From the IMG/VR virus record IMGVR_UViG_3300000117_000018: DNA of 20,000 nt. The stretch is one strand, 5' to 3'. The notes below the pieces were generated by a model. That model worked only from the letters and a program-made list of their open reading frames with translations, did no database searches and was not told where the DNA came from. Of this stretch, positions 12,308 to 20,000 are shown piece by piece. How positions within the stretch are numbered: position 1 is the stretch's first letter; each line of letters opens with the position of its first letter. Made by a program: the position numbers and the translations under genes. Source of the stretch: an uncultured virus (IMG/VR IMGVR_UViG_3300000117_000018). Lineage: Duplodnaviria > Heunggongvirae > Uroviricota > Caudoviricetes.

Positions 12308-12333
12308 TATATGTATAAAATGAAAAAAGGAAA
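12280..12333 (+). promoter_or_regulatory. Early promoter + conserved leader/SD cassette
   Basis: TTTACA (12280-12285)-N17-TATAAT (12303-12308), then ATATGTATAAAATGAAAAAAGGAAA. Confidence 0.88.
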
Positions 12334-12343
12334 ATATAATAAT

Positions 12344-12847
12344 ATGAGAACAATTTACTTAGATATGGACGGCGTTATCGCAAACTTCTTCAAATCCTTT
12401 GCGGATAAGAATAACGTTGATCATTGGAAATCAATCAAAGAAAAGGATAAGGCCTTAAACGAATTAGTCGGTACAGACTTCTTCTACCATATTCCTACCT
12501 TTGGTAATGAGTCTCGTAATATTGTAAATTTCGTTAAAGGAATTACAGAAGGTAACTGGGGTATTTGTTCTTCTCCACTTAGAGGAGATCATAACAACTC
12601 AGCTTACTGGAAACGTAGATGGCTTGAAGATAAAGGTTTCATGCCAGAAGTTGAGAATTGTATCTTTACTTCAAACAAACATAAGTATGCTATCAACCGT
12701 CTAACAGGATTACCAAATATTCTAATTGATGATAAGATTGATAACATTAAACGTTGGGAACAAGCTGGCGGTATCGGTATTCGCTTCCAGTGTGATAAAG
12801 ATGATGTTGTTGAATACCTTTTTGAGGAGATCACAAATGTATATTAA
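12344..12847 (+). CDS. HAD-family 5'(3')-deoxyribonucleotidase (NT5C-like)
   Basis: IYLDMDGVIANF motif I, ICSS motif II, K..W and NILIDD motif IV. Confidence 0.85.
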   Translation: MRTIYLDMDGVIANFFKSFADKNNVDHWKSIKEKDKALNELVGTDFFYHIPTFGNESRNIVNFVKGITEGNWGICSSPLRGDHNNSAYWKRRWLEDKGFMPEVENCIFTSNKHKYAINRLTGLPNILIDDKIDNIKRWEQAGGIGIRFQCDKDDVVEYLFEEITNVY

Positions 12848-13171: not shown

Positions 13172-13435
13172 ATGAGTACAGATATTTTTGATTTTGGCTT
13201 TACAGCCGTAAACGAAGAAGAACTTAAGTCGGTGCAGCAAACAGCTGCACTGGCTAATGATGCTGAGCAATTGGCAACTACAACTCAAGAAAAACTAGAT
13301 AAGTTGTACAATGCTGTTCAGCCTCTATTGAATAACCTTAAAGCTAATCCAGATAAAGATTATATCTATTGGCCTCAAAGACTTGAAAAAGTAGAACAAT
13401 TCGAAGATCATATACAAGGGATTTATAATGGGTAA
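13172..13435 (+). CDS. Conserved T4-like phage hypothetical protein
   Basis: FDFGFTAV...PLLNNLKANPDKDYIYWP pattern. Confidence 0.8.
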   Translation: MSTDIFDFGFTAVNEEELKSVQQTAALANDAEQLATTTQEKLDKLYNAVQPLLNNLKANPDKDYIYWPQRLEKVEQFEDHIQGIYNG

Positions 13436-13694
13436 AAAAAAATCAAGGACGTCACAAACGTCTAAAGGTGAACGTAGCTCAGTAGCACGTTCTGTATTAA
13501 AAGCAGTTAGACTTCAAAAAGAAATCGACCAGCCTTTTCGTAAAATTCAAGCACAGCTAGAAGCATGGAAGCTAGGAAAGAATGTAGTTCTTACAATAGC
13601 TAATCCAAATAAAAAAGAAACAAATAAACCTTATATTAAAGTTCGTGCTTGGGACGCTTGGGGTAGTCCTCGAGGTCAGCAAAGCAAAGGTTAA
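13428..13694 (+). CDS. Basic hypothetical protein
   Basis: 88 aa ORF overlapping the previous stop; AWKLGKNVVLTIANPN. Confidence 0.75.
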   Translation: MGKKKSRTSQTSKGERSSVARSVLKAVRLQKEIDQPFRKIQAQLEAWKLGKNVVLTIANPNKKETNKPYIKVRAWDAWGSPRGQQSKG

Positions 13695-13698
13695 AATA

Positions 13699-14088
13699 AT
13701 GAAAAAACTACTAACAGTACTTGCACTAGTACCAGCACTTACCTTTGGTGGGATGCTGGCTTTTGCAGATAATCAGACAGATCAGTCTGATAAAGTAGAA
13801 GAAGAGTCACCTAAAGTTTATTGGACTCGTAAACCAATTCAATGTGGTCCACCTGAAGGTTTAATTGACCTAGTAAAAGGCTATGGAGAAACACCATTAC
13901 TTACTGCTAATGGTTTAGCTACAATGCCTTCAGGCAGTACTAAAAATGTTCAAATTGTATTTGCAGTTAATCCAGAAACAGGAAGTTGGACATTAATTGA
14001 AATCAATGACCCAGAGCAAGCATGCGTATTAGGAAGCGGTGAGGGTTATGAAGTTAATAAATTACCAAGCAAAAAGCAGGAAACATAA
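13699..14088 (+). CDS. Predicted exported protein with two Cys
   Basis: Signal-peptide-like MKKLLTVLALVPALTFGGMLAFA from ATG 13699; KPIQCG and ACVLGSG. Confidence 0.75.
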   Translation: MKKLLTVLALVPALTFGGMLAFADNQTDQSDKVEEESPKVYWTRKPIQCGPPEGLIDLVKGYGETPLLTANGLATMPSGSTKNVQIVFAVNPETGSWTLIEINDPEQACVLGSGEGYEVNKLPSKKQET

Positions 14089-14090
14089 AA

Positions 14091-14603
14091 ATGGCAGCAG
14101 AAAATTACGATAAGTGTCTAGAACTAATTCTTCACCACGAGGGTGGATATGTAAATCATCCTAAAGATCCTGGTGGAGAAACCAACCTAGGAGTAACCAA
14201 ACGTGTTTACGAAGAGTGGGGTGGCACAAAAGATATGGTAGATTTAACGGTAGAAGACGTTGCTCCTATCTACGAAAAAAATTACTGGGGACGCACAAAG
14301 TGCAATGATCTACCTAGTGGATTAGACCTATGTGTATTTGATTTTGCAGTAAATGCAGGTCCTGGCCGTGCAGCTAAGTATCTACAAGAAATGATTGGTA
14401 CCACAGTTGATGGTGGGATTGGTCCTAATACACTTCGCGCACTTGGTAACTATATTGAAAGCGAAGGTACAACTGCAGCTATTCAAAATTACCAAGCCAA
14501 ACGCCAAGAGTACTATGAAAGTCTAAGTACTTTTGAAACGTTTGGTCGTGGTTGGACTCGTCGTGTAGATGAAACTACTGAAGAAGCAATTGCTTTAATC
14601 TAA
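14091..14603 (+). CDS. Endolysin, glycoside hydrolase family 108 with C-terminal peptidoglycan-binding domain
   Basis: HEGGYVNHPKDPGGETNLGVT catalytic motif, FDFAVNAG, VDGGIGPNT, FGRGWTRR. Confidence 0.93.
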   Translation: MAAENYDKCLELILHHEGGYVNHPKDPGGETNLGVTKRVYEEWGGTKDMVDLTVEDVAPIYEKNYWGRTKCNDLPSGLDLCVFDFAVNAGPGRAAKYLQEMIGTTVDGGIGPNTLRALGNYIESEGTTAAIQNYQAKRQEYYESLSTFETFGRGWTRRVDETTEEAIALI

Positions 14604-14605
14604 AC

Positions 14606-15151
14606 TTATCTATTTGCTAATGGGTTATCTAAAGCTTTTGTAAGCTTGCTGTTCATACGATCTTCTAGATTTTGAACTTCTCGCTTAACATAACCTTCCA
14701 TACCAGTTACTTTATCGTTAAAACGATTATTGGCATCGTCGATCATATTACGAGTATCAGTTTTAGATCTATCCATTAGGTCTTGTGCTTCATCTTCGAC
14801 TTTGTCAATATCGTTTTCAACCTTATCTAAGATCTTTTCCATACGAACTAGATCTTCTCTTAGATCATGTTTTGTATCTCTCATAAAATCTACTTGTTCG
14901 CCAATTGAATCGCGAATGATAATTACTTCTTCTCTTGTTACCTTCATTTCTTCATGAAGAACTGCAAGATTTTTATCAAACTCTGATAGATCGGGTGCTA
15001 CATAGTTTTGGATTTGTTCTTTCATATCCATATAATCTTTGTAGAATTCAAAGCCTCCCCAGAGACCACCACCTAATGTTCCAATAAGCGGTAGGACAAG
15101 AAGTAGTTTAGATCCACCAACCTTTATTCCACCATATTCGATTTCAGCCAT
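14606..15151 (-). CDS. Membrane-anchored coiled-coil protein
   Basis: Gly-rich TM LLLVLPLIGTLGGGLWGGF followed by about 130 aa of heptad-like charged helix. Confidence 0.8.
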   Translation of the reverse strand: MAEIEYGGIKVGGSKLLLVLPLIGTLGGGLWGGFEFYKDYMDMKEQIQNYVAPDLSEFDKNLAVLHEEMKVTREEVIIIRDSIGEQVDFMRDTKHDLREDLVRMEKILDKVENDIDKVEDEAQDLMDRSKTDTRNMIDDANNRFNDKVTGMEGYVKREVQNLEDRMNSKLTKALDNPLANR

Positions 15152-15312
15152 TTATATCGTCCTTTTAATTCATTAATTTTTACATCCAGTTCATATGTAG
15201 CATTATCAGCTTCTAAACTAGATCTTTCTTCTATTTTGTCTTCAATCAGTGCTAACCAAATAAGCAGCCATGTAATGAGTGCAAGGGATAATATAAGCAT
15301 TATTATAAACAT
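15124..15312 (-). CDS. Small single-TM protein
   Basis: N-terminal 24 hydrophobic residues; TAATG coupling to the upstream gene. Confidence 0.65.
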   Translation of the reverse strand: MFIIMLILSLALITWLLIWLALIEDKIEERSSLEADNATYELDVKINELKGRYKWLKSNMVE

Positions 15313-15542
15313 TATTTATATATCCCATCGTTGTCTTTTATATAAACTGGCTTACAGTAAGCAGTAATTCTATCTTTTGGATCTACTCTACTTGTGTAGC
15401 TATAGTTACCATATTGCCTAGGCACAGCTTTTGCAAAATACTGGCATCGATCTATTGAGTAAAAGTATAATGGATTTGGTTGAACTTTTCTAAATTCACC
15501 AGTACCTAATACTACTACTAACATAAAAACATGCACCATCAT
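15312..15542 (-). CDS. Small hypothetical protein with two Cys
   Basis: 76 aa, hydrophobic N-terminus, abuts neighbours on both sides. Confidence 0.7.
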   Translation of the reverse strand: MMVHVFMLVVVLGTGEFRKVQPNPLYFYSIDRCQYFAKAVPRQYGNYSYTSRVDPKDRITAYCKPVYIKDNDGIYK

Positions 15543-16025
15543 CTACCATTTACCCTGTGCTGATCCAATAAAGTAAACTACTGCTGCAAGAGTAAGAACA
15601 ATAAGCATAATTGCACCACCTATAGTAATAGTCTCAATAAAGTCTTTTCTTAATTGTGCTTGCCTATAAACATTTTTTTCTCGTTGTTTAGCTATTTTAC
15701 GTCTCATTTCAGTAAGTTCATCCCAAGTACCATGTCCATATCTCCAATTAAGTATAGTCCTTAATTCTTTTTCCTGTTCTGCAATTTTCTTTTCATGCAT
15801 AAGTAAAGCAAGAGCTTCTTCCTCTACTGAACCTGCATTAAATAACTTTTTGAAAAGTGGAGGTTTCTTTTGCATTTGCTGACCTTTACGAAAGTCAGAA
15901 ACTGCTGTGTACCATTTCCCCATTTGACCGACAGTATTTTCGAAGTCTTGTCCTGCAGCAACAAATCGCTGTACTGTCTTATAAGCAGTAGTGGCCGCTG
16001 TGATAGCGGTAATTGGATCGATCAT
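15543..16025 (-). CDS. Hypothetical protein with C-terminal TM helix
   Basis: MIDPITAITAATTAY N-terminus, helical core, TM ITIGGAIMLIVLTLAAVVYFIG. Confidence 0.8.
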   Translation of the reverse strand: MIDPITAITAATTAYKTVQRFVAAGQDFENTVGQMGKWYTAVSDFRKGQQMQKKPPLFKKLFNAGSVEEEALALLMHEKKIAEQEKELRTILNWRYGHGTWDELTEMRRKIAKQREKNVYRQAQLRKDFIETITIGGAIMLIVLTLAAVVYFIGSAQGKW

Positions 16026-16029
16026 TTTT

Positions 16030-17895
16030 TTACCTTAAGTTAGGATATTGTAAATTCTCCATCGCTCCAAAGTTTGGGTCATTCAAAAACCATCTAGCAT
16101 AAGCATGATCTACAGTAGGCTTTGGTGGATAGAAATTTACTTGATTAACATTTTCTTTTTCTCCATAATCACTAAAATCTGGTACAAAACTTATAAGTGC
16201 CAGAAGTCGTCGTTGTATATTCATCTGCTGCTCTAAAGTAACAGCGTTCTCTAATTCCTTAGTAGCCTCAATAGCCTTTTGAGCTATAAGCCATTTTATT
16301 TTTTGTCTTTTACTAGCATCCGGACTGAGAACGTTTTCCCGTTTACTGTTTTTTGTTGCATCACCCACCTTGTTGGGCCCCTCATTACTACCGGCGACTT
16401 GTACTCCATCCTCGAGTGTCGACTCTGAGTCCCCTTCGCTGGTATCCGATTCTTGTTCCAATTCCGCGATTTCTTTTTCAATGTCATCCTCCATAACTTT
16501 TTTACCACCTGCATTTGTGGGATCGTCAAAGTCATTTTCCGATGATGTAGAATCTTCCAATTGAGCTATTTCTTTTTCAATATCGTCTTCCATGTTCATA
16601 GCATCACCTTCGTTCTCTAGTTCAGCTATTTCACGTTCAATATCGTCTTCTAGTACTTGTTGGTATTCATCTATCTCTATTGCTTCGGGTTCAACCTCAA
16701 CTATTTCTTCTGTATACGTTTGTGTGTATACGGGAATTTCTGGTTCAAATAATTCTGTTTGTACTTCAGCGTTAACAACATCATCCACAATGGGATCTAG
16801 TACTGTAAAGTCTCCATCATTACCAGAAAGATCAACATAACCAGGACACATAGTATTATACTGAGCATCTAATCCACATTGCTGATCAAAATAAGCTGTA
16901 TCATATCCAATACAACCCATGTCATACAAAGGATTTTTTTCACATTGCGCTACAAAATAATCTGGACAGCCAGGATCTGATAACGGATCATTAGTACATT
17001 GTTGGTTATAATATGCCGTTTGATAGCCAGGACATGATGGATCGTATAAAACACTAATAGCACATTGCTGGTTCAAGTAAGCAGTAGCATAGCCAGGACA
17101 GCTTGGATCATATAAAGGATTTTGTGTACACTGTTGTTGGAACAGTGCGTTGGCATATCCAGGACAGCTTGGATCTGAAAGTGGTCCATTAAGTGTACAG
17201 TTATCTGGCATAAGTATAACTGAGCCAGTCATGTTTTGTACTTTAGGTCCATACATTCCTTGCCAGTAACCATTGTCAACACCTCTAATAGTAACTTCAA
17301 TTTCGTCAATAGTTAAACCTGGAACTAACGCTAGTGGAGAAAAAGTTAAGACATCTTCAACAGTCCAACCATTTGATTTGGTCTGGCTATAATCCCACTC
17401 TTCGCTGTAGATGTTAATACCACTTGCATAAGCATCAATAGTAATCACCAAATCATCTAAGCAATCACCGTTTACTTTGGTTACATTACATGCACCATTG
17501 ATTGTGTTAATGTTTTCGTTTTTCCAATCCCACTGAGCAGCATAGCCACCAATATTAAACCCTGCACCTGCAAGTGCTTGGTTGATAGCCATGTTTGTCA
17601 CCCACGTATCATTAGTGTGTGAAAAGTGAAGAATGTAATCGGTACTAGTAAGAGTGCTTCCAGTGTAGTTGTTATATTGCTGGTTTTGAGATTTACCTGT
17701 ATTATGACGACCTGTACCAAAGTCACCTTGGTCAAGTATCTGCTTGATAGTATTATCTACTGGATCAAGACACTGTGTACCAGTTAATGGGTTTATAGTA
17801 CCATCAGTTGAAGGTACGCAGTTTGTACTAACTTGTGCGTTACAATAAGAGGAGAAGAAGAGCAAGCCCGCTAATGCCAGCAGCCACCGCCCCAT
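16030..17895 (-). CDS. Large predicted exported protein with Cys-rich tandem repeats and acidic helical repeats
   Basis: Signal-peptide-like MGRWLLALAGLLFFSSYCNA (start 17895 or 17910), beta-rich N domain, six two-Cys repeats and three EDDIEkEIAeLE repeats. Confidence 0.85.
   Translation of the reverse strand: MGRWLLALAGLLFFSSYCNAQVSTNCVPSTDGTINPLTGTQCLDPVDNTIKQILDQGDFGTGRHNTGKSQNQQYNNYTGSTLTSTDYILHFSHTNDTWVTNMAINQALAGAGFNIGGYAAQWDWKNENINTINGACNVTKVNGDCLDDLVITIDAYASGINIYSEEWDYSQTKSNGWTVEDVLTFSPLALVPGLTIDEIEVTIRGVDNGYWQGMYGPKVQNMTGSVILMPDNCTLNGPLSDPSCPGYANALFQQQCTQNPLYDPSCPGYATAYLNQQCAISVLYDPSCPGYQTAYYNQQCTNDPLSDPGCPDYFVAQCEKNPLYDMGCIGYDTAYFDQQCGLDAQYNTMCPGYVDLSGNDGDFTVLDPIVDDVVNAEVQTELFEPEIPVYTQTYTEEIVEVEPEAIEIDEYQQVLEDDIEREIAELENEGDAMNMEDDIEKEIAQLEDSTSSENDFDDPTNAGGKKVMEDDIEKEIAELEQESDTSEGDSESTLEDGVQVAGSNEGPNKVGDATKNSKRENVLSPDASKRQKIKWLIAQKAIEATKELENAVTLEQQMNIQRRLLALISFVPDFSDYGEKENVNQVNFYPPKPTVDHAYARWFLNDPNFGAMENLQYPNLR
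16456..16650 (-). repeat. Three copies of EDDIE(K/R)EIA(E/Q)LE
   Basis: Seen in translation; approximately 16615-16650, 16555-16590 and 16456-16491. Confidence 0.85.
16837..17199 (-). repeat. Six Cys-pair repeats (about 22 aa period, CxxxPLYDPSCPGY-like)
   Basis: CTLNGPLSDPSCPGY, CTQNPLYDPSCPGY, CAISVLYDPSCPGY, CTNDPLSDPGCPDY, CEKNPLYDMGCIGY, CGLDAQYNTMCPGY. Confidence 0.9.
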
Positions 17896-18403
17896 TTCTT
17901 TTTTGAACATCCTTTTTTGTCTCCATTACTTCTACAGGTGGAATACGATCTGGATTTGCTTTCCAACCGTCAGTGGCTTTATCACCAATTTCACCTAAGA
18001 ACGGACAAGGTGTTCCTGCCATTTCCATTGCATTATATACTCTACGGTCTTGGCACAGTACAGATACTGCAGCCACTTTCATTCCCATATCATATAATGT
18101 TTTACTTATTTTCAACCTTTCACAATTTTCGTCTCTTACCATTTCCCCTGTAGATATTCCAAGGATCTGAGTTTGCACAGCAGCCGAAACTCCAACGGTA
18201 CATAAATCTGACGATGATGAGCCAACACTTGGCGAGATAGCCGAAGGTGGCGGTGAGATAACAATAGTTCTAGAATTCGCATCTGTATTTACAGTGGAAT
18301 TTGACTTTGAGTCTGTAATTACATTGCTTGTAGTCTGAGCTAAAGCAGTGTTTGACAGAAGCGCTAATCCAAATACTAACGCTATAATGTTTTTGTANTT
18401 CAT
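17840..18403 (-). CDS. Predicted exported Cys-containing protein with C-terminal hydrophobic tail
   Basis: Signal peptide (…ALLSNTALA|Q), S/T-rich linker, SPPPSAISP, four Cys, tail GAVAAGISGLALLLLLL*. Confidence 0.82.
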   Translation of the reverse strand: MXYKNIIALVFGLALLSNTALAQTTSNVITDSKSNSTVNTDANSRTIVISPPPSAISPSVGSSSSDLCTVGVSAAVQTQILGISTGEMVRDENCERLKISKTLYDMGMKVAAVSVLCQDRRVYNAMEMAGTPCPFLGEIGDKATDGWKANPDRIPPVEVMETKKDVQKRNGAVAAGISGLALLLLLL

Positions 18404-18434
18404 GATTGGTTCCGTTACTAAATCCTTAGACTAC

Positions 18435-18442
18435 TATTTATA
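18435..18442 (-). promoter_or_regulatory. T4-type late promoter TATAAATA (minus strand)
   Basis: TATTTATA on the + strand, about 30 nt upstream of ATG 18403. Confidence 0.78.
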
Positions 18443-18473
18443 AAAAAAAAGTACTAAAAAGTGAAAATAATCC

Positions 18474-18530
18474 TTTACAATTGCTAAAAAGTATGATATA
18501 ATATATCTATAAAATGGAAAAGGAAGGAAA
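18474..18530 (+). promoter_or_regulatory. Early promoter + conserved leader/SD cassette
   Basis: TTTACA (18474-18479)-N17-TATAAT (18497-18502), then ATATCTATAAAATGGAAAAGGAAGGAAA. Confidence 0.88.
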
Positions 18531-18534
18531 TACT

Positions 18535-18840
18535 ATGAAATACGCAAATATGTTAGGTTACTCAGATGTTGAACCATATGAAGTTGTAAAGGTTATCTCT
18601 GATAAAACTATTGAAATTCGTGCTATGGATTCAAAAGCACTCCCTTGGAAAAGAGATTTTCATCCTGGCGGTTTCTTTGGTCATACATCTAATCAAAACG
18701 AACAGAAGTGGGATATCACTTCAAATGAAGACAATCCGGTTTTCAGAATTCGTTTAGGTAAAAAAGGCTGGAAAAACGCTGGTGGATCTAGGTTTCAATT
18801 AGCAGATGAGCCAAGAAAATTCTATGATTTTAACTTCTAA
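18535..18840 (+). CDS. Hypothetical early protein
   Basis: ATG 18535 after SD; YSDVEPYEVVKV...PRKFYDFNF. Confidence 0.8.
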   Translation: MKYANMLGYSDVEPYEVVKVISDKTIEIRAMDSKALPWKRDFHPGGFFGHTSNQNEQKWDITSNEDNPVFRIRLGKKGWKNAGGSRFQLADEPRKFYDFNF

Positions 18841-18853
18841 GAAAGGAAGTAAT

Positions 18854-19015
18854 ATGCTTTTAACTGCAGTAATAATTGGCGCAATCACTGGAACCTTTAT
18901 TGGTGGGTTCCTTGTTAAGGATGAAGGTGCTATAGGAGAACTTTCTATGATAGCCTTTGGTCTTACTGGTCTAATCTTTGGTATAATTACATTTAGTTTA
19001 CTAGGTTTATTATAA
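18854..19015 (+). CDS. Small two-TM membrane protein
   Basis: SD AAGGAAG before ATG 18854; two Gly-rich hydrophobic segments. Confidence 0.7.
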   Translation: MLLTAVIIGAITGTFIGGFLVKDEGAIGELSMIAFGLTGLIFGIITFSLLGLL

Positions 19016-19033
19016 TTATTTTCAAAATAAACC

Positions 19034-19091
19034 TTTACAATTAACTAAAACTGTGTTATAATATATGTATAAAATGAAAAAAGGAAGGAAA
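19034..19091 (+). promoter_or_regulatory. Early promoter + conserved leader/SD cassette
   Basis: TTTACA (19034-19039)-N17-TATAAT (19057-19062), then ATATGTATAAAATGAAAAAAGGAAGGAAA. Confidence 0.88.
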
Positions 19092-19095
19092 TAAA

Positions 19096-19317
19096 ATGGG
19101 AAAAGTTAAAGGATTAGTTATGGATATCGAAGAAGAACTTTACGGTATCGATAACTTTGAAGATATGATCTCTGAGTCAGAGTCATATTCTCAGTTCACC
19201 ATGAAGCTTTTGGAAAAACCACAGTTCAATAAGATACATGAGCAGTATGGTTCTTCATGGGTTCGAGGAGTTCTACTAGATATGTGGAACGAGTACTGGG
19301 GTACTCAGTACGTATAA
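19096..19317 (+). CDS. Hypothetical early protein
   Basis: 73 aa ORF, MGKVKGLVMDIEE, after a strong SD. Confidence 0.78.
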   Translation: MGKVKGLVMDIEEELYGIDNFEDMISESESYSQFTMKLLEKPQFNKIHEQYGSSWVRGVLLDMWNEYWGTQYV

Positions 19318-19320
19318 ATA
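19313..19320 (+). promoter_or_regulatory. T4-type late promoter TATAAATA upstream of tmRNA
   Basis: Exact consensus immediately before the acceptor piece. Confidence 0.75.
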
Positions 19321-19325
19321 AGAAA

Positions 19326-19645
19326 GTAGTGATGAAGCAATTCAAACGCTAGACAGGACGCGGGGGCAGTACCCGCCGCCTCCACCATAACTACACTGGC
19401 GTGTGACGATATAAGTCCACGAAATTCAGTATAGTGCGGAACAATGATTACGGTTTCAGTGTAGTTATGATGGGGGCGAACTAGGATCGACTGGTAGTCA
19501 TTAGAAAAGTGGAGCTATCCCGCGCAAGCTGGGTTAACGCAAGAAAAAGACTAAACGCAAACGATAATTTTGCACCTGTGGATTATGCCTTAGCGGCATA
19601 GTTTAACGGGGTCCGGAGGTACCTAGCAACAGAAACCTCCAACTA
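19326..19645 (+). ncRNA. ssrA: Two-piece (circularly permuted) tmRNA, alphaproteobacterial type; outer ends approximate
   Basis: Acceptor piece has T-arm GCGGG-GGCAGTA-CCCGC then CGCCTCC-A-CCA ending 19387. Coding piece starts GGGGGCG at 19472 (7 bp acceptor stem with G3-U). Tag 19557-19601 reads ANDNFAPVDYALAA*. Confidence 0.95.
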
Positions 19646-19665
19646 ATTTTTTACAGGAGACTTGA

Positions 19666-20000
19666 ATGCCGCCTAGAAATCATAAAAATTGGTTAGCTAC
19701 ACCAAACGTAGAATACATATCAAGCGAGTGCTATAATAACGCTGATATTTTTGCCCAAGAACAAGAAAGAATTTTTTCAAAAGTTTGGGTTCCTATGTGT
19801 CACATTTCTGAAATGTATAATAAATTTGAGTTTAGAACAACACAAATCGCAGGTCAAAATGTTATTGCGTGGAATACTGGAGATAGGGTTAAAACATACT
19901 TGAATAACGGTCCACAACAACCTTCTGGCAAAGTATGGAATGATGATACTTTTGGTAAAGAGTTACATTGTGAAGTAAAACATGGTGGAATGGTATGGGT
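19666..20000 (+). CDS. Aromatic ring-hydroxylating dioxygenase alpha-subunit-like protein (partial; Rieske motifs apparently absent)
   Basis: SD AGGAG; open to the window end. MPPRNHK...ISSECYNNADIFAQEQERIFSKVWVPMCHISEM...FRTTQIAGQNVIAW...YLN...LHCEVKHGGMVW. Confidence 0.75.
   Translation, partial: MPPRNHKNWLATPNVEYISSECYNNADIFAQEQERIFSKVWVPMCHISEMYNKFEFRTTQIAGQNVIAWNTGDRVKTYLNNGPQQPSGKVWNDDTFGKELHCEVKHGGMVW

Follow-up and report, generated by a model that had tools for sequence, protein, structure and literature searches.

A block of six minus-strand genes in a 20,000-nucleotide (nt) stretch of DNA from an uncultured virus of the Caudoviricetes (IMG/VR record IMGVR_UViG_3300000117_000018; the whole stretch is hereafter called the window) contains a three-gene envelope cassette that is real, widespread and apparently undescribed. 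The three genes, designated A, B and F from their positions in the block, match no known family in its defining features, and we infer their function from the gene content, linkage, dual coding, domain exchange and coexistence with spanins reported here, together with a predicted hairpin and self-association of A and a predicted fold of B. Our preferred reading, to which we give a probability of roughly 40%, is that A-B-F forms a trans-envelope anchor that presents a variable binding domain on the infected cell late in infection. The window belongs to a T4-like phage: its list of open reading frames (ORFs) includes genes read as nrdA/nrdB, RNase H-like and PhoH-like, T4-type PHROG profiles match its proteins, and it carries a GH108 endolysin gene and a permuted tmRNA. 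Its relatives come from marine viral contigs. Among cultured phages, the nearest homologs of the block genes belong to those that infect Pelagibacter and Roseobacter, which points to a host that is likely alphaproteobacterial. No description of the A-B-F trio or of the A domain was found in full-text literature searches, with supplementary tables and most subscription papers outside their scope, nor did these searches find a paper in which virion proteomics covered A-B-F.

Composition and linkage of the gene block

The block (14606–18442, minus strand) is a tight array of six ORFs, A to F, listed here with the features that adjoin or overlap them.

18435–18442, minus: T4-type late promoter motif TATAAATA heading the block, 32 nt before A
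17840–18403, minus: gene A (core), 187 amino acids (aa), 4 Cys; one N in codon 2
17840–17910, minus: A/B dual-coded stretch, A tail and B signal peptide (+1 frame)
16030–17910, minus: gene B (core), 626 aa, 17 Cys; an ATG five codons downstream would give 621 aa
about 17200–17835, minus: putative jelly-roll tip of B, exchangeable, from model and fold matches
15543–16025, minus: gene C (second set), 160 aa
15312–15542, minus: gene D (second set), 76 aa, 2 Cys
15313–15320, minus: second TATAAATA, at the D/E junction
15124–15312, minus: gene E (second set), 62 aa
14606–15151, minus: gene F (core), 181 aa
14091–14603, plus: GH108 endolysin gene (PF05838, E = 3e-30), convergent neighbour outside the conserved unit

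A and B overlap by 71 nt, B and C are separated by 4 nt, C and D by 0 nt, and D/E and E/F overlap by 1 and 28 nt, respectively; F stops at 14606, 2 nt from the GH108 stop at 14603. The remaining minus-strand ORFs of the window are at most 121 aa long and overlap plus-strand genes. A preliminary description of this DNA had claimed six tightly coupled genes in the only credible minus-strand block, ending 2 nt from the endolysin stop, and the coordinates agree with it on each point. It had missed the second hydrophobic segment at the C-terminal end of A, the 71-nt A/B overlap and the second TATAAATA. Its statement that no product has a nameable family nearly holds: none of the six proteins had a Pfam or NCBIfam match above the cut-off, and across Pfam, PHROGs and NCBIfam we found nothing named for A to E and coiled-coil noise alone for F; A matches the unannotated PHROG 20531 (E = 2e-14) and C matches PHROG 32327 (E = 1e-7). 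It had also given every product a signal peptide or hydrophobic segment. Hydrophobic segments were defined as 19-residue Kyte-Doolittle peaks, with signal peptides judged by eye. A has one at each end, with an N-terminal peak of 1.72 and a C-terminal peak of 1.71; the peak of C (2.59) is C-terminal, and the values for B, D, E and F are 1.35, 1.35, 2.75 and 1.71, respectively. The hydrophobic N-terminus of D is weak and without a basic n-region, and its export signal is doubtful.

Relatives were fetched by anchor gene (80 loci for A, 80 for C, 80 for F, 62 for D and 30 for B), profiles were built and the gene order was mapped. Linkage was counted in the loci with enough flank (51/80 for A, 35/80 for C and 38/80 for F), which removal of near-duplicates reduced to 37, 24 and 21, respectively. 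F was present in all 37 A-anchored loci and B in 33, with C in 9, E in 3 and D in 2; in the 4 loci without B, an ORF of 285–310 aa fills the B position. All 21 F-anchored loci contained A and B (E in 7, C in 5, D in 4). The 24 C-anchored loci contained D in 8 cases, E in 4, and A, B and F in 2 each. All six genes occurred together in only 1 A-anchored, 2 C-anchored and 4 F-anchored loci, and GH108 lay within 6 kb of A in only 2 of the 37. The block is composed of two separate gene sets, the core A-B-F and a second set C-D-E. Neither the six-gene system of the preliminary description nor the meaning that it saw in convergence on the endolysin is supported by these counts, and the neighbourhood search that it had proposed confirmed co-conservation for A-B-F, which is linked across many phages, with C-D-E separate. 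What stands of its multi-gene envelope claim is a late, uncharacterised set of exported or membrane proteins that probably forms a periplasmic or surface complex.

The order of the six genes seen in the window is kept in its closest relatives (loci L001, L010, L089, L090, L099 and L306), and the order of C-D-E varies among relatives. C-D-E was found without A-B-F at the same site in L100–L102, L242 and L247, which are contig fragments and do not cover whole genomes. C occurs in 13 GenBank records, 12 of which are not among the A records; the sole overlap is phage Mosig, where C lies approximately 44 kb from A, and in the record G011 the two genes are approximately 30 kb apart. Among eight GenBank phage records opened around A, seven have the order A, large exported protein and an F ending in Asn-Pro-Leu (NPL). 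The cassette occurs in two forms, one with a long B as in the window and one with a short B (~300 aa) and three extra genes before F; in the latter, seen in L023, L038, L045, L051, L063, L064, L072, L075 and others, A and short B are followed by genes of ~165, ~125 and ~135 aa and then F. When the proteins flanking the trio were classified (two genes on each side in the 37 loci), 2 of 128 fell in the PHROG lysis class; the 128 were drawn from 139 picked neighbours after exclusion of C, D and one cut ORF, and spanins 3–4 genes upstream are uncounted. Such mixed flanks are as expected for a mobile cassette. Most likely, A-B-F is such a cassette and C-D-E shares its late transcript here.

The motif TATAAATA, that of the T4 late promoter, heads the block as had been claimed, and among the 36 relatives examined, 16 carry it ahead of A. 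Its five matches in the window compare with 2.7 expected, and 31 of 200 shuffles reach five, so that its frequency is not above chance; the second copy may serve F or be a chance occurrence. Scans of 14000–19200 were likewise at chance overall (sigma-70 promoters, 15 versus 17.9; terminators, 5 versus 2.7). Two near-consensus sigma-70 promoters (11/12, extended -10) lie on the plus strand at 18474–18502 and 19034–19062; the former and the late motif that heads the block stand back to back. Contigs of the marine metatranscriptome X1 cover 13370–15268 and 15290–16901 at 99% or more, from which neither strand nor level can be read and in which DNA is possibly present; 17275–17501 is uncovered in all four RNA runs, and this gap carries no meaning as a finding.

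Predicted structure and variation of A, B and F

A consists of a signal peptide, a Thr/Ser/Asn-rich N-terminal part, a Pro-rich linker, a Cys-clamped uncharged beta-hairpin, a helical collar and a C-terminal poly-Leu tail. In the monomer model (144-row alignment; predicted local distance difference test, pLDDT, 84) the N-terminal part is unstructured, and the hairpin (mature residues 47–55 and 60–68) is closed by the invariant Cys46–Cys72 pair and followed by helices. Columns 49, 51, 53, 60, 62 and 64 hold Gly, Ala or Ser in 96–100% of the 144 rows. Apolar residues predominate on the opposite face, at both ends of which cellular members have Phe and Trp, and charged residues make up at most 3% in columns 48–64. 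A four-copy model scored 0.49, compared with 0.00 for the best of three controls. In the calibration, which used two copies and is only roughly valid for four, 20 of 30 solved pairs attained the mark applied, as did 1 of 23 single chains. The runs share at least 89% of contacts, with a partner pLDDT of at least 63. Strand 2 (residues 58–66 and 68) is modelled against strand 1 of the next copy (48 and 50–56), and the helices of neighbouring copies pack head to tail. The models support head-to-tail self-association of A, in the arrangement expected if the copies closed into a ring around one common barrel. Searches of solved structures with A gave no sequence match up to E = 10 and no fold match in the PDB, the best Z score of the monomer being 3.4 among 48,161 chains, with no Foldseek match at E = 0.001; the oligomer score is therefore unlikely to derive from a memorised structure. 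The BFVD fold search returned only the family itself, a kind of absence that excludes nothing, and the ESM Atlas returned three unnamed viral clusters at 0.86.

The A family comprises 1801 clusters at 50% identity and at least 8000 proteins, and it is found in unrelated phages of Pelagibacter and Roseobacter. Chromosomal homologs (L346–L384) are carried by Hyphomonadaceae, Micropepsaceae and Pusillimonas. A further group, L305–L345, was rejected as cellular and left uncounted, because its members resemble phage contigs that were binned with bacterial assemblies (L306 was checked, the others judged by identity and record type). In the cellular proteins a signal peptide is followed by repeats, either Asn/Gly/Gln-rich or collagen, and then by the A domain and a Pro-rich linker; collagen repeats stand at the start in 9 of 45, and the Pro-rich linker is followed by a terminal OmpA domain in 9 of 45. 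No conserved partner such as B or F was found beside them. In OmpA-type proteins an outer-membrane barrel is followed by a peptidoglycan-binding OmpA domain. By analogy, the cellular layout would be that expected of an outer-membrane anchor tied to peptidoglycan, with the A domain standing where the barrel sits, and an outer-membrane location of A would follow from this comparison. At six loci (L351, L352, L353, L357, L359 and L374) there are tandem A paralogs, the second with the OmpA domain. This arrangement suggests a mixed ring, and the collagen fusions suggest a ring of three subunits or a multiple of three.

The hydrophobic C-terminal tail of A is present in 89 of 93 members of the window's subfamily, approximately 13 residues from the collar, and is missing in Mosig, HTVC023P, Baldr, CRP-207 and CRP-810. 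The sequence encoding it also encodes the signal peptide of B. After 15 of 109 distinct A genes had been set aside for want of a nearby ORF matching the B profile, B started inside A in the +1 frame in 92 of the remaining 94 pairs. Among the last six codons of A, 496 of 534 carry T as the second base, and the B residues opposite are Ser, Tyr, Cys or Phe in 481 of 534. T at the second position of the Leu codons of A forces these residues into the B signal peptide; this codon pattern argues that the tail is selected rather than a by-product, and, as judged from the codons, both the A tail and the B signal peptide are under selection.

B consists of a signal peptide, a galactose-binding-like jelly-roll tip, Cys-bonded helical repeats, an acidic disordered stalk and conserved C-terminal helices. 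The model of the mature protein (80 rows) has a beta sandwich at residues 30–210 and Cys-bonded helical repeats at 212–335, with pLDDT mostly 70–94. The modelled tip is closest to the sugar-binding domains of Fbs1 and Fbs2 (1umh: Z 12.3, root-mean-square deviation 3.4, 159 residues aligned), and it also resembles carbohydrate-binding modules (CBMs) and the carbohydrate-binding domains of tailspikes (Z ~10); Foldseek matched it to 5w6h (E = 4e-6). Sequence searches of solved structures gave weak matches only, among them F-box sugar domains (E = 0.14–0.59). The tip is a putative ligand-binding domain, the ligand probably being a glycan. The B family had 1899 homologs among 8000 scored; no tblastn match was found among 50,697 phage records, and the ESM Atlas returned nothing for the C-terminus.

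Close relatives can carry different tips. The window and L001 are 92–95% identical in DNA on both sides of the tip, with no match across 17175–17821, and in relatives whose A is 97% and whose B C-terminus is 96–97% identical the tip is only 31–32% identical. In eight relatives with A at 72–80% identity the tips are 69–82% identical. Seven tip types were distinguished among 26 B genes, those in which a sequence pattern allowed the domain ends to be located, with rho(A, tip) of 0.07 versus rho(A, C-terminus) of 0.51; where the A cores are at least 95% alike, the tip falls below 45% in 3 of 7 pairs and the C-terminus in 0 of 7. By these comparisons, the tip is exchanged as a cassette between conserved borders, which would resemble the behaviour of receptor-binding and adhesin tips.

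F has an N-terminal membrane segment (hydrophobic peak at residue 16) followed by a coiled coil, and its PHROG hits are of a weak coiled-coil type only. Its length ranges from 111 to 222 aa. Three of the 45 representatives (L012 and L015, which are i-spanins, and L112) do not have NPL and were left out of the alignment; all 42 aligned members end in it. A constant end on a coiled coil that varies in length suggests that NPL is a docking motif. Several members of the trio are mislabelled in GenBank. CRP-810 gp51 (L087:6162-6584) and CRP-207 gp73 (L088:3292-3873), both annotated as lysozyme, belong to the F family and match its profile (E = 1e-19 and 2e-21, respectively), and we therefore rejected them as a link between A and lysis. 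CRP-810 gp53 (L087:4776-5531), named as OmpA family, is an A-family protein; the main text of the CRP-810 paper mentions neither OmpA nor lysozyme (PMC11288001). In MW202481 (L085:4770-5300) the A gene is unannotated, two antisense ORFs are annotated instead, and the protein in the B slot is named TonB.

Proposed function and competing explanations

We propose that A is exported and forms a ring, the hairpins of which would make an outer-membrane beta-barrel, with the helical collar beneath it in the periplasm. From its inner-membrane anchor, F would span the periplasm and dock on the A/B assembly through its NPL end. B would be held by its conserved C-terminal end, its acidic stalk and disulfide-bonded repeats carrying the tip at or beyond the cell surface, where the exchangeable tip would bind its ligand, probably a glycan. 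The infected cell might thereby adhere to further hosts or particles before lysis; alternatively, surface glycans might be masked against superinfection or grazers. The A-B, A-F and B-F contacts, the surface exposure of B, its ligand and the benefit are parts of this model that we infer. Among the roles listed in the preliminary description, the evidence favours adhesion or display; a stand-in for spanins is not supported.

Several known systems resemble A-B-F in part. Two-component spanins (lambda Rz/Rz1; T4 PseT.3/PseT.2; PHROG 739/812) are likewise late envelope genes. F has the topology of an i-spanin, with an inner-membrane anchor, a periplasmic coiled coil and a conserved C-terminus, and A and B overlap as do Rz and Rz1, which overlap in the +1 frame, but the A/B overlap excludes the coiled-coil protein F; A-B-F differs further in having three components, with a lectin-fold cargo and no outer-membrane lipoprotein. 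A unimolecular spanin of the T1 gp11 type has an N-terminal lipoprotein signal and a C-terminal membrane segment after a beta-rich part; the tail of A corresponds to the latter (89/93), and a lipobox-like pattern was seen in 1 of 112 A proteins. In YadA-type trimeric autotransporters several chains jointly form an oligomeric barrel, and repeats make up the N-terminal passenger. A differs in having two mid-chain strands followed by helices rather than four C-terminal strands, and in the phage cassette the adhesin-like part is the separate protein B; no YadA-type Pfam match was found for the block proteins or the 45 cellular A homologs. The repeat passenger, the Pro-rich linker and the peptidoglycan-binding OmpA domain found among cellular A homologs are nevertheless features of YadA- or OmpA-type anchors. 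GlyGly-CTERM (rhombosortase) substrates end in a GG motif, a membrane helix and basic residues, and the tail of A differs in ending at the poly-Leu stretch with no basic cluster after it; no such NCBIfam match was found in 47 members at E = 0.5. The six proteins matched no usher, PapD-like chaperone or pilin profile, as chaperone-usher systems would have; the extra genes of the short-B form lie outside the window. The predicted tip of B is a jelly roll; this galactose-binding-like fold (Z 12.3 to 1umh) is what B shares with CBMs.

Two reports describe viral curli (type VIII secretion) in pelagiphages, with CsgG, CsgF and CsgA/B and with proposed roles in sibling capture, superinfection shielding and lysis timing (PMC9599517, PMC9004378); phage Melnitz combines viral CsgG/CsgF with a two-piece transfer-messenger RNA (tmRNA) and a GH108-like lysin (PMC9004378). 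A-B-F is similar in being a mobile cassette across unrelated marine phages that would pair an oligomeric outer-membrane beta-barrel with an exported cargo, and in the roles proposed for it; it differs in that the cargo is a stalked jelly roll rather than curlin and in having an inner-membrane coiled coil rather than FecR/cyclase. A has no CsgG profile match, one hairpin per subunit and no lipobox; no CsgG, CsgF or curlin Pfam match was found for A or B at E ≤ 1, nor in the 45 cellular A homologs at 1e-3. The closest counterparts are in cultured phages: HTVC115P gp54/gp53/gp49, HTVC023P gp45/gp46/gp48, Mosig 202/201/200 and CRP-207 gp75/gp74/gp73 have an A of the same family (PHROG 20531) and the same order of A, exported protein and NPL coiled coil. 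They differ in that most are without the hydrophobic tail of A and have other cargo domains, and they are unannotated or mislabelled.

The fate of the A tail is the main weak point of the ring model and the first of several points that weigh against our reading, since an outer-membrane barrel is impossible if the tail stays in the inner membrane, unless it is cut or inserted in the outer membrane. A small barrel cannot pass the folded, disulfide-bonded B, the export of which is thus a difficulty, and the C-terminal part of B models poorly (pLDDT 42–75). The tip is also similar to Eph receptor domains, at Z 9.5, and to birnavirus VP2, at Z 10.2, which share the jelly-roll fold, so that the fold alone is no proof of sugar binding. 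In RSP15, A stands alone. The protein in the B slot of CRP-207, CRP-810, Mosig, HTVC023P and the Manatee Spring record has no B-profile match and many cassettes have the short B of ~300 aa with three extra genes, from which it follows that the lectin-stalk is one cargo among others and no general rule. In three of eight records opened, the trio has lysis genes nearby (peptidase M15 in HTVC023P, a lysozyme in Manatee Spring and a holin-like gene in Mosig), and spanins lie near A in L012, L013, L015 and G006.

Spanins coexist with A-B-F in relatives. A PHROG 739 and PHROG 812 pair is present on the contig of A in 5/5 large relatives (G002:C85, G003, G004, G005 and G006), compared with control genomes in which PHROG 812 was matched in 0/14 and PHROG 739 in 8/14. 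G002:C85 carries the six block genes in the window's order against GH108 plus the spanin pair; in L012, L013 and L015 the canonical pair lies 3–4 genes upstream of A, and in G006 it is 1.1 kb from A. The true spanins of relatives match these profiles at 1e-10 to 1e-15; F of the window has no spanin-profile match, and 1 of 42 F members matches PHROG 739 (E = 3e-4). The nearest record to the window, G001 (5 kb), contains neither A nor PHROG 812, and nothing can be concluded from it. Since spanins coexist with A-B-F, it is unlikely to be their substitute. A lysis accessory by which the outer membrane is breached or fused, either alongside spanins or in their place, with A as pore or fusion hairpin and F acting like an i-spanin, would suit the topology of F, the +1-frame overlap, the late promoter and the lysis genes nearby in some genomes, and we regard it as unlikely in view of the canonical spanins of these relatives, the flanks with 2/128 in the lysis class and the scarcity of lipobox-like motifs, which a simple pattern detected in 1/112 A, 4/102 B, 1/113 C, 0/68 D, 0/42 E and 0/121 F. 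Standalone cellular homologs, moreover, would presumably not need a lytic pore, and membrane fusion has no place for an exchangeable tip.

A wholly periplasmic A-B-F, in which A is a soluble or inner-membrane-tethered ring and the B tip has as its target peptidoglycan, another glycan of the periplasm or the machinery by which a competitor phage enters (resulting in exclusion, stiffening or lysis delay), seems to us doubtful, though likelier than the other alternatives. The selected hydrophobic tail of A, the inner-membrane nature of F, and the cleavable signal and many disulfides of B all agree with it, no export pore of a known type was found among the six proteins with Pfam, PHROG and NCBIfam, and diversifying tips would also be expected of exclusion proteins; an outer-membrane anchor is the better fit to the uncharged alternating hairpin and to the cellular fusions with OmpA and collagen, the A tail is absent in several isolates, and a long acidic stalk would suit outward display. 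Alternatively, B might be stored in the periplasm, with or without A, and act once lysis has occurred, either as a free lectin or by coating progeny or membrane vesicles and so helping them to reach the next host. This would remove the export problem and accord with a tip fold common to tailspike binding domains and exchanged as in receptor-binding proteins. We nevertheless find this improbable, slightly more so than a lysis accessory, because signal peptides part these proteins from cytoplasmic virion assembly, A, B, C and D have no structural PHROG match and F only weak coiled-coil ones, and linkage to the membrane-anchored F is strict. Least credible is one complex of all six genes tied to the GH108 endolysin, the unit of the preliminary description: the order shared by six close relatives and the presence of C inside the block in 9/37 A-anchored loci speak for it, and against it stand A, B and F in only 2/24 C-anchored loci, the same-flank fragments with C-D-E without A-B-F, the 12 of 13 C records outside the A records and the distances of tens of kb in Mosig and G011.

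The second gene set, neighbouring genes and significance

C is a helical protein with one C-terminal membrane segment; it resembles neither the holin-like gene at 1662 nor any holin profile, and its sequence matched no solved structure under E = 0.14. D, which usually adjoins C, has two invariant Cys in an alignment of 34 members, none of which had a Pfam match; among solved structures it matched a chain named H10 (E = 2.5e-4 over 34 residues), with no stretch passing alone. E has one N-terminal membrane segment and a short tail, and its similarity to the holin PHROG 689 (E = 0.026) is not significant. As two of five cultured-phage records opened have a holin or endolysin gene three genes away from C, and C-D-E faces GH108 in near relatives, this second small inner-membrane or periplasmic set may be a lysis accessory.

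Other plus-strand features of the window were as follows.

1662–2126, plus: holin-like gene matching PHROG 6637 (E = 5e-24), with a PF11351 match (E = 0.005) that falls short of the cut-off; homologs adjoin the trio in Mosig, L019 and MW202481
11041–11508, plus: short Na+/Pi-cotransporter-like membrane protein (PF02690 E = 1.5e-13) near PhoH, a possible phosphate-related auxiliary gene
12311–12847, plus: 5'-3' deoxyribonucleotidase-like gene (PHROG 2643, E = 4e-23)
13702–14088, plus: exported 2-Cys protein directly upstream of GH108 and retained there in relatives; weak PHROG 25396 match (E = 4e-4)
19294–19692, plus: permuted (two-piece) tmRNA gene
19666–20000, plus: ORF resembling the N-terminus of ring-hydroxylating oxygenase large subunits

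Two-piece tmRNA genes are reported in marine phages (PMC9004378). A full-length relative of the oxygenase-like ORF (L099:1004-2071) matches TIGR03228 (E = 8e-10) over residues 17–75 only, and Rieske Cys/His ligands were not seen by eye; a related 354-aa gene lies between F and GH108 in L090, L092 and L093, indicating that this gene moves.

The A family is very large, and its phage members infect Pelagibacter and Roseobacter, which are the most abundant bacteria of the sea; even so, it is unnamed and mislabelled in GenBank, and its chromosomal members constitute an undescribed bacterial surface-protein family in their own right. A broader proposal, which we put forward as speculative and doubtful, is that A is an undescribed outer-membrane anchor with a barrel built from one disulfide-clamped hairpin per chain, by which stalked Alphaproteobacteria would hold collagen-like or Asn/Gly-rich fibres and ocean phages would display an exchangeable glycan-binding adhesin, catching the next host before the burst. 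Were A-B-F wholly periplasmic instead, it would still be a widespread exclusion or lysis-control device of an unknown kind. If the trans-envelope anchor is correct, A would represent a new family of oligomeric outer-membrane barrels and A-B-F a second phage-built surface system beside viral curli, the natural panel of swapped tips could link binding specificity to host range, and sibling capture, that is, how phages of dilute hosts find the next cell, would become testable in cultured systems.

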